This document shows, piece by piece, positions 16,372 through 32,686 of a stretch of 40,359 nucleotides of DNA. The stretch's first letter is position 1; every line of letters starts with the position of its first letter. Source of the DNA: a virus (Duplodnaviria; Caudoviricetes); IMG/VR virus record IMGVR_UViG_3300020045_003500, positions 1 through 40,359 of that record. The stretch is one strand, 5' to 3'. The position numbers and the translations under genes were made by a program. The notes under the pieces are model-generated. The model saw only the letters and a list, made by a program, of their open reading frames with translations. It did no database searches and was not told the DNA's origin.

Positions 16372-16665
16372 TTAACTAAGGTTACTTATTGCCTTGTTTA
16401 AGTCTGCGTTAGCACTTTCACTCTCTGGGTCAGCGATTTTAATGTTAACTCTGGCATCTTCTTTGATCCCCGATATTCTGAGTATGGTCCTGATAGCTTG
16501 TGCTGTTTTACCTTCCTTGCCGATTACTTGACCACGATCCTCTTTCAATGTGTAAAGAGTAAGTAATACTCCCATGTCGTCTGTTCTAGATTCTACTCTA
16601 ATTTCTTCTGGATGATCTACTAAAGCTTTAGCGATCGTTTCTAATAGTTCTTTGGATTTCTGCAT
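16372..16665 (-). CDS. khpA: KH-domain RNA-binding protein (KhpA/YlqC-like)
   Basis: IAKALVDHPEEI...GQVIGKEGKTAQAIRTIL with GxxG loop. Confidence 0.88.
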   Translation of the reverse strand: MQKSKELLETIAKALVDHPEEIRVESRTDDMGVLLTLYTLKEDRGQVIGKEGKTAQAIRTILRISGIKEDARVNIKIADPESESANADLNKAISNLS

Positions 16666-24383: not shown

Positions 24384-24395
24384 AAATTTTATTAG

Positions 24396-24467
24396 TGGGA
24401 TAGGGAGGGATCGAACCTCCTCCGTTGGTTTCACAAACCAGAGTGCTATCCGTTACACCACTACCCC
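24396..24467 (-). tRNA. tRNA-His (GTG), atypical: no G-1, A73, no encoded CCA
   Basis: GGGGTAG/CTATCCC acceptor, GTGT/GCAC D stem, loop TTGTGAA, GGAGG-TTCGATC-CCTCC T arm; 72 nt. Confidence 0.88.
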
Positions 24468-24471
24468 GTGG

Positions 24472-25353
24472 TTAGAATTCTAACCCTTCACCTACATCGA
24501 CCACCTGTAACCCTTGCTCGCGCCACATACGAATCACACTTGGGCGATCATCAATTACTTCTACAATCCAACTCTTATTTCTGAAATGCGATCGGAGGAT
24601 ATCAGCTTTAACTTGGTCGTCTGGTCGTTTATCATCGGCACGCCTCATAAACAGCGCTTCATAAGGTATTACTCCTTTGAATGCTTTATCGATCCATATT
24701 TTTGTTTGCTCTCTGTAAGTATCTGGTCGACCAGTAACTATGAAAATCTTACGGCCCTTATCCACATGACTCAAAAGTAAATCAATCACTTTCACGTTCA
24801 CTTCGTCAGCTGGCGCTGCAGCAAAGAACCCTTTCCAATCTTTCTTCTGACCTTCGGGGACTTTAACAAAGTGAAGGCGGTGATCGATGTTCGCAAGCGT
24901 TCCGTCTATATCACAAATCACTACTCCTTGCTCTGGAGTAGGGTATAAACCACTTTGCATGGCCATTCCGACTATCACACTCTCACCAACGCGGTCATCG
25001 CCACGCACAGCATCCCTCGCAAGACATTCTTCCATTGTAGTTGGCATTTTATAGACTTGAGTTTTTGCGTTCATTTCTTTCCCTAAATCTACCCAACTCT
25101 GCAACGTTCTTGGATTTAAGTTAGTGTCATCGATTATCACATTCACATCATCCGCCAAAAATCCTTTAGCAAGCATCCTTGCAGCCGATCGGGTAATATC
25201 TTCATTGCGACCACTCCACTTATCGAAGTGCAACATGGTACGAAGTAAATCTTTGTTGATTCTTACTCCGTTACCCATCTTTTTTAACATCGCTGCTGCT
25301 TCTGTGGATTTACCCGATGCTGGCAAACCTTGCATTATTACAATTTTACTCAT
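24472..25353 (-). CDS. Polynucleotide 5'-kinase/3'-phosphatase (T4 PseT-like)
   Basis: GLPASGKST P-loop, IIDDTN, DIDGT HAD motif, TGR, DDRPSV. Confidence 0.93.
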   Translation of the reverse strand: MSKIVIMQGLPASGKSTEAAAMLKKMGNGVRINKDLLRTMLHFDKWSGRNEDITRSAARMLAKGFLADDVNVIIDDTNLNPRTLQSWVDLGKEMNAKTQVYKMPTTMEECLARDAVRGDDRVGESVIVGMAMQSGLYPTPEQGVVICDIDGTLANIDHRLHFVKVPEGQKKDWKGFFAAAPADEVNVKVIDLLLSHVDKGRKIFIVTGRPDTYREQTKIWIDKAFKGVIPYEALFMRRADDKRPDDQVKADILRSHFRNKSWIVEVIDDRPSVIRMWREQGLQVVDVGEGLEF

Positions 25354-26444
25354 GAATCTATATCGTTTTTGAATCCACTCTGACCTTTAGGACGAATGAT
25401 GCGCCATATCGCCAAACTAGGATTTTTGTCATCGAGTATTGAAAACGCCACGCCCGTGTACCTAGTCATTTTCTTAATTATTTCAGCTTGGTCTTTTCTG
25501 TTATCTGTTACACCTTGAGCCGTGTAGTAAGCCCTGAACGCATCATCGTATATGGAAATATATTGTTCCTTCAATTTTTCTTGCACAGACCTTACCCAAT
25601 TAAAGAATTCGTCAGGAACTTTATTAAGTAAATCGTTTAAGTCTTTGCCGTCACGCAAGTGTTCCCAGATCGCAATTTCTGACACTCCAGTTACAAGTTT
25701 GTGAAGTCGCACGTATTCAGGAAACTTTATCTTCATCCTTACATTTTCTTTGGGATAGTAAATAACAAACCCTTCACTATTTGGTTCATCCATCTTACAT
25801 AAGAGGTCAATATCCGTTACAGGAATTTCTCTGGCTTCTCGAATCGGTTCTGGCATTAACATTAAACTTCCAATAGAGTTGCCACTCTGAATTTCTATCG
25901 AATCTAAATGAACAAGCCCAGAAAAGTCGTAATTAACCACGATTCTATTCTCTGGATATATTATCTCAAACAAGTGAGTAATGTTCTTATCAATGCCGTA
26001 AGGGATATCATGCATACGCACATTGGTTTCTAACCACTTCGTAGCCCATAACGCCTGATCGGATGTAAAAGAGCCTCTGGTAGCAATTTGAGTGCGCCCG
26101 TTGAGGGTATACATGATACCGAGTGAACCATCCAATTTTTGAGTTACTAACGGATGACCCTTTGGTATCTCAATGCCTTTCGTGATCCACTCCCCATAGT
26201 TAAAGAATTTAGGGAATGGTCGCGCTAGTATCTCGCCTGTTTCAACGTTTAAGATTAAGCCACGGCATTGGGTAGTTACTTTATCCCAAGCATGAGAGAA
26301 CTGACAGAGCTGCGTGTAGTTAAAAATCCGCACATTTGGATCTTCTGGATGGGATTGTTCCGAGATTAACTTTTTTTCGATGTACGGAAGTATCTCTGCG
26401 TAACTTGGCACCTCTTTGAACACTTTAACTTCACCGTTTATCAT
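25350..26444 (-). CDS. RNA ligase (T4 Rnl1-like)
   Basis: CRGLI, ARPFPKFFN, KLDGSL (motif I), ATRGSF, FEII, EGFVI, KIK. Confidence 0.92.
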   Translation of the reverse strand: MINGEVKVFKEVPSYAEILPYIEKKLISEQSHPEDPNVRIFNYTQLCQFSHAWDKVTTQCRGLILNVETGEILARPFPKFFNYGEWITKGIEIPKGHPLVTQKLDGSLGIMYTLNGRTQIATRGSFTSDQALWATKWLETNVRMHDIPYGIDKNITHLFEIIYPENRIVVNYDFSGLVHLDSIEIQSGNSIGSLMLMPEPIREAREIPVTDIDLLCKMDEPNSEGFVIYYPKENVRMKIKFPEYVRLHKLVTGVSEIAIWEHLRDGKDLNDLLNKVPDEFFNWVRSVQEKLKEQYISIYDDAFRAYYTAQGVTDNRKDQAEIIKKMTRYTGVAFSILDDKNPSLAIWRIIRPKGQSGFKNDIDS

Positions 26445-31963: not shown

Positions 31964-32035
31964 TTCCACCTGTTGGAATTGCACCAACTACCTTTGGCTT
32001 ATGAGACCAAAATGCATCTGTTACACCTAGGCGGG
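31964..32035 (-). tRNA. Degenerate tRNA(CAT)-like element (Met/fMet-like)
   Basis: CCCGCCT/AGGTGGA acceptor (C1:A72), TTGGT-CTCATAA-GCCAA, GTTGG-TGCAATT-CCAAC; lacks U8 and the D-loop GG. Confidence 0.65.
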
Positions 32036-32038
32036 ATC

Positions 32039-32209
32039 TAAGAGGCTTAAGCGGAAGCTTGGGTTTGTGATGACTACATTTGGTCGAAGAAATATGGTCA
32101 TCGGAGACATTGGGCTTTCATCACCAGCTTCCGCTTCAGTCGCAGTGCAATGAATGCATACTGCTGTTGTTGGTGATACATCGTACCAAGCTCCTGCTTA
32201 AACCTCTTA
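32039..32209 (-). ncRNA. Putative 171-nt structured RNA closed by a 24-bp stem
   Basis: 32209-32186 pairs with 32062-32039 (1 mismatch, 2 G-U), with internal hairpins. Confidence 0.6.
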
Positions 32210-32303
32210 ATTCAGTTGTAAAGGAGAGGGCTTTGACACGAATGTCGCAGCCCTCGAGTGTGGGAGGAGTGAGTCTCAAAATAGAGACTCGGTGGGATAG
32301 ATT

Positions 32304-32320
32304 TGGATCACCTCCTTTCT
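32304..32320 (-). promoter_or_regulatory. 17-nt perfect complement of the canonical 16S rRNA 3' tail (extended SD), no start codon
   Basis: Minus strand reads AGAAAGGAGGTGATCCA. Confidence 0.75.
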
Positions 32321-32400
32321 AAATGAACTGGTGAGGAAGTTAAGTCCTAATTGTGCCGTAGCACATGAGGGTCGATGCCCTACGTTGGGTTCGGACCTAA

Positions 32401-32455
32401 CTCCCTCGTTCCTGCTCTTCTCCTTTCCTTATGGGAGACGAGCAGAGCCAGAGAG
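32401..32455 (-). other. Long RNA hairpin, copy 2 of the two-copy motif
   Basis: TCTGCTC-G-TCTCC...GGAGA-A-GAGCAGG directly after the holin stop. Confidence 0.65.
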
Positions 32456-32686
32456 TTAAACCTTGCCTAGTATCTTACCTTTCTCATCAGTCAATAAGTT
32501 TTTAACGATGTAACCTAATCCTGCTACAGCGCCAACGGTAAACAGTAAACTCCAATCAGCCGTTAAAATATCAAAGCCAGGTACATTGACCCAGTCCGCT
32601 AGTTTAGCGACGACAGATGTTAAAACTGCCGTTACTGCTCCTTTGAGGAGATCTCTAAGGTTTAATCTAAATAATTTTGTTTGCAT
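32456..32686 (-). CDS. Holin (putative, 2 TM)
   Basis: MQTKLFRLNLRDLLKGAVTAV...LGYIVKNLLTD; next to the endolysin. Confidence 0.7.
   Translation of the reverse strand: MQTKLFRLNLRDLLKGAVTAVLTSVVAKLADWVNVPGFDILTADWSLLFTVGAVAGLGYIVKNLLTDEKGKILGKV

Follow-up and report, generated by a model that had tools for sequence, protein, structure and literature searches.

A Shine-Dalgarno (SD) sequence without a start codon is said to stabilize RNA in the cryIIIA transcript. It has been reported that a strong SD without a start codon stabilizes downstream RNA in Bacilli (PMC3997798). The STAB-SD of Bacillus thuringiensis cryIIIA comes from a group with RNase J, and a 30S roadblock has been proposed for it. 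Small mRNAs of the rreB/rreR type in Alphaproteobacteria are perfectly complementary to the 16S 3' end over 17 nt; tight 30S binding of rreB was demonstrated, an mRNA with the 17-nt SD co-sedimented with 30S subunits, and a start-to-stop mutant remained ribosome-bound and was longer-lived (PMC5711450). In Bacteroidota, rpsU carries an exceptionally strong, extended SD where ordinary genes ignore SD pairing, and this translated gene is described as being under bS21 autoregulation (PMC9976891). Also, the GP20-a RNA motif (Rfam RF02991) is found upstream of phage scaffold-type genes.

The locus compared here with these systems lies in a window of 40,359 nt, which is the complete virus record IMGVR_UViG_3300020045_003500 (40,359 bp) with direct terminal repeats. 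The original prediction held that the window carries an exact 17-nt complement of the 16S tail, very unlikely by chance, with no start codon at initiating distance, in a phage whose genes use no SD, and all of this was borne out. The 17-mer is present on the minus strand, which is also the coding strand of the phage (Table 1); it is the site of the sole AAGGAGG on both strands of the genome (chance expectation ~1e-5), and ATG, GTG and TTG are absent 5–13 nt behind GGAGG. With a real CPR 16S 3' end (L299) the perfect complement reaches 18 nt. In computed energies, the 17-mer site was the strongest anti-SD binder of the genome, at -26.1 kcal/mol, followed by a site at -16.6. Among 53 gene starts tested, no SD signal was found (median -2.0 versus -2.9 at random places), and the starts were A-rich instead (58% versus 34%). 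We found that the SD is followed by an AUCU tag, which the original prediction had overlooked and which is conserved in related copies. A GTG within the SD and the AUC of the tag share a common frame and are followed by stops after 11 and 8 codons, respectively, the latter frame ending at TGA (32278-32276).

Table 1. Features of the window discussed in the text.
Feature	Position	Strand	Basis or remark
Extended Shine-Dalgarno AGAAAGGAGGTGATCCA, 17–18 nt complementary to the canonical 16S 3' end	32304..32321 (17-mer 32320-32304)	(-)	Sequence
AUCU tag, AUC 8 nt behind GGAGG (start-codon spacing)	32299..32302	(-)	Sequence
Two predicted hairpins and anti-SD-like tracts (CACC 32294-32291, TCCTTT 32225-32220)	32220..32294	(-)	Predicted fold-back on SD
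Upstream hairpin holding CTTCCTC tract, 15 bp, z -6.6	32333..32407	(-)	Predicted fold
Small membrane-type ORF upstream of SD	32456..32686	(-)	Holin-like by position after endolysin-like gene
Closed multibranch RNA, ~170 nt	32039..32209	(-)	Predicted fold
17 nt shared exactly with 16S helix 45 of G270 (its tip and 3' strand)	32119..32135	(-)	16S comparison
tRNA, CAU anticodon, C1:A72 mismatch, initiator type	31964..32035	(-)	Anticodon arm identical to G158 tRNA
KhpA-type KH-domain protein	16372..16665	(-)	Supports Paceibacteria host; tie to SD element a candidate

Compared with STAB-SD, the phage element has a longer complement (17–18 nt), AUCU at start spacing and structure directly behind it, and it heads a non-coding RNA and a tRNA, not an mRNA; related copies in prophages lie, by position, in mRNA leaders. 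The element may work like STAB-SD, yet we do not class it as one because no mRNA lies behind it here and 30S docking is a prediction. Similarly, its complement is of at least 16 nt, as in rreB/rreR, but rreB starts with GTG and encodes a conserved, weakly translated 14-aa peptide (PMC5711450), and the phage element has neither. Matches from Caulobacterales in the genome collection were GTG-led small ORFs and were set apart as rreB-type look-alikes. Whereas the rpsU SD precedes a translated gene, no ORF lies behind the phage SD, and no bS21 was found among the 47 phage proteins scanned. A weak GP20-a match (E 0.44) in L183 is located downstream of the SD-AUCU element there, with no overlap, and the window has no match.

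The region 32455-32036 folds far better than shuffles (z -10). Two hairpins are predicted behind the SD, as had been proposed; the companion proposal, that an upstream CTTCCTCAC could occlude the SD, was dropped, and CTTCCTCACC was likewise rejected as an occluder, because folding predictions place the tract inside a separate 15-bp hairpin. For the SD, they indicate pairing with the two downstream tracts instead, and the opening cost of the SD is 7.8 kcal/mol versus -26.1 for the duplex. Rfam gave no gathering-score match over the element, either in the window or in 20 + 18 related loci; the window shows no called terminator-like site around the element and no RBS behind it. Several other identities were rejected: a 16S fragment or primer carry-over (the sequence behind the match is not 16S), a peptide ending in ERR-stop or read in the KGGDP/RKEVI frames (no start codon in the window; frames not shared), and an integration core (no integrase among the 47 proteins scanned). 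Type I toxin mRNAs have a start codon and a small hydrophobic peptide behind a sequestered SD, and neither was present in the three-frame translation, so this identity was rejected as well. The ORF upstream of the SD matched no holin profile, and its putative holin-like role comes from its position.

Behind the hairpins, the closed multibranch fold had no Rfam match and no homologue in 50 viral records or 301 genomes. It is followed by the CAU tRNA (32035-31964), presumably of initiator type by the usual hallmarks. Within the fold, 17 nt are identical to part of the last 16S helix of G270, which we take to be helix 45; these are predicted to form a GGAA-capped tip (tip pairs 0.66–0.95) on a 7-bp stem with 32178-32172, ~170 nt downstream of the SD, in a single case. 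This match of 17 nt exceeded the longest found in 3000 shuffles (14) and in the remaining tiles of the window apart from the SD (12); it came to notice post hoc, with a 16S picked once the match had been seen, and GNRA-capped stems are common. The helix-45-like word was found within 400 nt of 0/126 other copies, and it was rejected as a homologue signal because its 17 viral matches sit in long open frames. The SD, the helix-45-like hairpin and the initiator-type tRNA all lie within 360 nt, and the region holds two adjoining 16S pieces, one antisense and one sense. We list the helix-45 echo as an unexplained match.

Viral contigs were scanned for the 15-mer without selection for AUCU, and the 120 listed of ~310 loci collapsed, after removal of near-duplicates, to 101 loci (55 in long frames, 23 start-led, 22 start-less and 1 rRNA). 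Among these listed loci, AUCU was present 0–4 nt behind the 15-mer in 13/22 start-less non-coding copies versus 0/22 at a +20 offset, and in 1/23 start-led copies. It was also found behind 17/55 listed copies classed as coding, which counts against a dummy site; these are in part one protein family and probably include some misclassed loci. When viral, genome and metagenome scans were pooled, we obtained 213 non-redundant SD-AUCU sites, 127 of them start-less, including one subset that was pre-selected for AUCUAA and probably holds chance matches. The spacing from GGAGG to AUC was 7–10 nt in 114/127 start-less copies, a range also seen for true starts that follow this SD. The spacers between SD and AUCU vary from 0 to 3 nt, so that the copies have no frame in common, and the length of AUC-led frames ranges from 1 to >40 codons; therefore, no conserved peptide follows AUC. 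A stricter pattern in the genome collection matched 54 contigs, about one third of them titled CPR; the sites in these CPR contigs are mostly intergenic and start-less.

A compact H-type pseudoknot was predicted in 40/127 start-less copies (8.9 expected from shuffles) and in 7/60 coding sites (5.0 expected), and its first stem covaries (CCC/GGG, CGG/CCG, CGU/ACG and others). Among the 87 copies not selected for AUCUAA, the pseudoknot was present in 33/49 with C behind AUCU and in 4/28 with A. A terminator-like hairpin within 90 nt behind SD-AUCU was found in 26/85 copies, compared with 2.8 expected. The window element fits the motif definition (AAGGAGGUGAU, AUCU 6–10 nt behind GGAGG, non-coding, structure directly behind); it has A behind AUCU, then hairpins, with a pseudoknot score of 0, and lies outside the subclass whose H-type pseudoknot starts 0–2 nt after AUCU. 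An unrelated viral contig (L004) is identical to the window copy over 23 nt and likewise has A, hairpins and a CAU tRNA downstream. This contig also has a closed multibranch fold of ~200 nt (L004:1222-1420) upstream of its copy, with a region z of -4.5 and no Rfam match. The sequence of the site, its complementarity, the recurrence of the tag and the structure behind the tag are all observed. No earlier description of the SD-AUCU tag was found in the literature searched, although it may be among the 224 motifs of PMC5737381; as far as that literature and Rfam reach, the tag and the pseudoknot subclass are undescribed.

With regard to gene context, we scanned 37/80 upstream and 34/71 downstream ORFs from viral and phage-like loci, which yields uncontrolled counts. 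Downstream, 9/34 were seven scaffolds and two prohead proteases; in addition, there were two endolysins, two methyltransferases and a single terminase, portal, tail protein and holin each, the rest being unknown or unmatched. The 37 upstream ORFs included five holins, four portal or minor head proteins, and a single major head protein, endolysin and helicase. As a separate observation, a start-less SD-AUCU copy (L596:1001-1022) lies among 8 arrayed tRNA genes and follows tRNA-Asn at a distance of 12 nt.

A profile scan of the phage proteins identified terminase, capsid, RecT, SSB, GroEL/ES, MetK, RNA ligase, polynucleotide kinase and KhpA, and no integrase was found among the 47 scanned. The named relatives of KhpA are mostly from Patescibacteria, it matches 279/301 genomes of the class to which the Paceibacterota record G001 belongs, and the phage tRNA has the same anticodon arm as an initiator-type tRNA from Paceibacteria (G158). 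Because both point to that class, the host is likely a member of Paceibacteria (CPR). Finer placement by KhpA or tRNA failed, the best matches falling on both sides of the anti-SD split. The genes for RNA ligase, polynucleotide kinase and tRNA-His are grouped (24395-26444) and likely form a tRNA repair module.

The 16S tails of the host class were sorted by hand from 150 listed of 161 ends, with one genome with two conflicting ends set aside; 66/146 were canonical, 21 partial (keeping CUCCU) and 59 lost, some of these last being wobble-compatible. This agrees with a report in which an anti-SD was detected in 48% of Parcubacteria (PMC9297842). Among three carriers of the motif with a known tail, G001 and G003 had no anti-SD in their binned 16S and G005 had both, which counts against tail pairing; the mismatch in G001 and G003 is possibly due to mis-binning. 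In a separate observation (L619-L638), the 59 class genomes without canonical anti-SD in binned 16S contained AAGGAGGTGAT 72 times versus 22 for the reversed control, and 13/20 copies led ATG or GTG at normal spacing, mostly before small unknown proteins; mis-binning, wobble pairing and gene transfer are candidate reasons for this excess.

We also examined SD use in long genes of the host class, within a stretch of 20 kb per genome for 10 anti-SD-bearing and 10 anti-SD-less genomes, with a simple ORF caller. Sites of SD strength were found at 16/164 genes versus 12/144 internal ATG controls in the former, and at 17/155 versus 15/134 in the latter. At the level of the host class, host mRNAs are as SD-less as phage mRNAs; therefore, an anti-SD sponge would not separate the two, and the takeover of translation by such a sponge, the second alternative in the original prediction, found no support. 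The same conclusion came from related phages, represented by 50 records (49/80 capsid relatives, mainly the longer ones, and L002; 10 at least 90% complete and 40 fragments). None showed a copy: 0/29 AGGAGGTG matches had AUCU at 6–10 nt, with a pattern that misses about 1/4 of sites, and a family-wide takeover system was rejected on this basis. The non-coding region of the window had no homologue in these records, with DNA matches at chance level only. Because no copy was found in the 50 related records, the element looks accessory in this phage group. SD use varies within the group, since a complete capsid relative has SD-led genes (G325:C1:21033 and 28271).

We tentatively interpret the site as a dummy ribosome-binding site, with a chance of being right that is close to even: a 30S subunit would dock on the extended SD, with AUC in the start position, and shield the RNA behind it from RNase J. 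A late transcript would be cut upstream of the SD, and with AUC in place the initiator tRNA would not lock in and no productive start would follow. RNase J would then trim 5'-to-3' up to the parked 30S, where it is likely to be blocked. By the rules of RNase P processing and tRNA identity, RNase P would release the tRNA at 32035, leaving a folded RNA of ~290 nt attached to the 30S. Where the motif occurs in Firmicutes-type prophages, it would serve to increase scaffold, capsid or endolysin mRNA relative to upstream cistrons. The suggestion of a 5' stabilizer, the other arm of the original prediction, appears to fit because RNase J scored over the cut-off in 58/61 host-class genomes (a class-level result) and related copies mark boundaries ahead of high-copy phage genes. 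In addition to RNase J, the AUCU enrichment, start-like spacing, absence of a conserved peptide, gene context, balance of duplex against opening cost and the precedents of STAB-SD and rreB argue for the dummy site. Against it count the canonical tails, only 66/146 in the listed ends of the class with the host unplaced, and the STAB-SD model, which predicts neither AUCU nor a pseudoknot. Also, a closed fold and a tRNA behind the SD need little 5' protection, a terminator-like hairpin in 26/85 copies leaves little to stabilize, the gene-context counts are uncontrolled, and the dummy site does not account for the fixed U as fourth base of the tag.

The chief rival, which is compatible with the stabilizer, treats AUC as a weak, IF3-sensitive start that opens a micro-ORF or a start-stop. 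The structure behind it (a terminator, a hairpin covering the next RBS, or a pseudoknot) would be switched by the footprint of the ribosome, making a sensor of free ribosomes. IF3 discriminates against near-cognate starts such as AUC. This reading matches the start spacing and the structure beginning 1–2 nt after AUCU, inside the initiation footprint; UAA or UAG is a frequent second codon (in part a result of the AUCUAA selection), the 5' arm of the terminator begins within 12 nt in 11/85 copies, in L005, L261, L445, L532 and L598 a second SD closely follows and can pair with the bases behind AUCU, and many pseudoknot copies begin at the stop codon of the upstream gene. However, the window has neither a called terminator-like site near the element nor a following RBS, the copies share no conserved peptide, and the literature search found nothing on AUC starts with IF3, and we regard such a switch as unlikely, if worth serious attention. 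The pairing of AUCU(A) with AGAU of the 16S 790 loop, as a second rRNA contact in a two-point 30S clamp, would account for the fixed U. The window AUCUAUCC can pair with this loop with one bulge (-11.3 kcal/mol), L005, L261 and L445 carry its exact complement ATCTAATCC, and the tag is rarely flanked by G on either side. Yet TCC followed ATCTAA in 2/34 non-coding copies versus 2/51 coding or start-led controls, those cases can pair with the second SD instead, and a mismatched C follows AUCU in 49/87 copies; extended 790-loop pairing, which showed no enrichment over controls, was rejected, and we would be surprised if the clamp proved real.

Instead of acting in cis, the released RNA might be a 30S decoy in trans, which parks subunits or titrates factors of the 16S 3' end and reshapes initiation late in infection. 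The clustering of SD, helix-45-like hairpin and initiator-type tRNA, the length of the helix match relative to shuffles and other tiles, the KhpA, RNA ligase and polynucleotide kinase encoded by the phage, and the short RNAs that terminator-backed copies would yield are consistent with a decoy. But SD-less host-class genes leave it no selectivity, the helix match was post hoc and is missing near the other copies, none of the 50 related records showed a copy, and 20-fold overproduction of rreB RNA with its 17-nt SD left growth unchanged (PMC5711450); such a decoy seems improbable. A broader version appears no more probable to us: in an RNA of ribosome parts, the dummy start would clamp the 30S tail with a near-cognate P-site codon, the helix-45 look-alike would divert factors of the 16S 3' end, and the initiator-type tRNA would come from the same transcript, so that initiation is retuned, and SD-AUCU-pseudoknot would be a widespread RNA class acting in the decoding region of the parked 30S. 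The site may also be idle here: it would be a hitchhiker or a piece of host rDNA once taken up, carried in a lineage with a missing or hidden anti-SD. No copy was found in the 50 capsid-related records, ten of them at least 90% complete, about half of the class has no canonical tail among the ends listed (and the reported detection in Parcubacteria is 48%; PMC9297842), two adjoining 16S pieces occur in the region, and in three genomes the match reaches 21 nt, running into the 16S trailer. We estimate that finding this 3-base trailer extension in 3 of ~66 genomes is close to what chance would give; besides, the perfect match is followed by a family tag instead of 16S sequence, the unrelated viral contig L004 is identical over 23 nt, and the region folds far better than shuffles. 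Idleness has a small chance in our view.

With these copies, a lone 17-mer becomes a recognizable SD-AUCU-structure motif of gut-type prophages, CPR phages and CPR chromosomes, and the covarying pseudoknot subclass sits at places where scaffold, capsid or lysis proteins call for more phage mRNA. If the stabilizer reading is true, the motif would be a transferable means of adjusting protein ratios within late operons. It also bears on the question why roughly half of Paceibacteria retain an anti-SD for which their ordinary genes have no use, and poses a puzzle in the perfect SD elements of genomes with no such tail in their binned 16S. If tail pairing is true, GAAUCACC tails should accompany GGUGAUUC elements.

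Some copies showed further features. A hairpin with a loop of the GG-CUAAUCC-CC type lies behind the SD in L055, L290, L294, L298, L455, L516, L518, L592 and G182:C2:93156-93208 and may be a further subclass. A viral protein family (…RKEVIQS…; L081, L048, L006, L057 and others) encodes the SD word near its C-terminus, and TCT tends to stay behind this word despite a codon shift, so the motif may be embedded in coding sequence. In L297, an extended SD precedes a short ORF, which we take to be pqqA, upstream of a gene that looks like pqqB. On CPR chromosomes (L245, L256 and L273), SD-AUCU and a terminator-like hairpin lie between two conserved genes, presumably ftsX and pyrG, and form a candidate attenuator.
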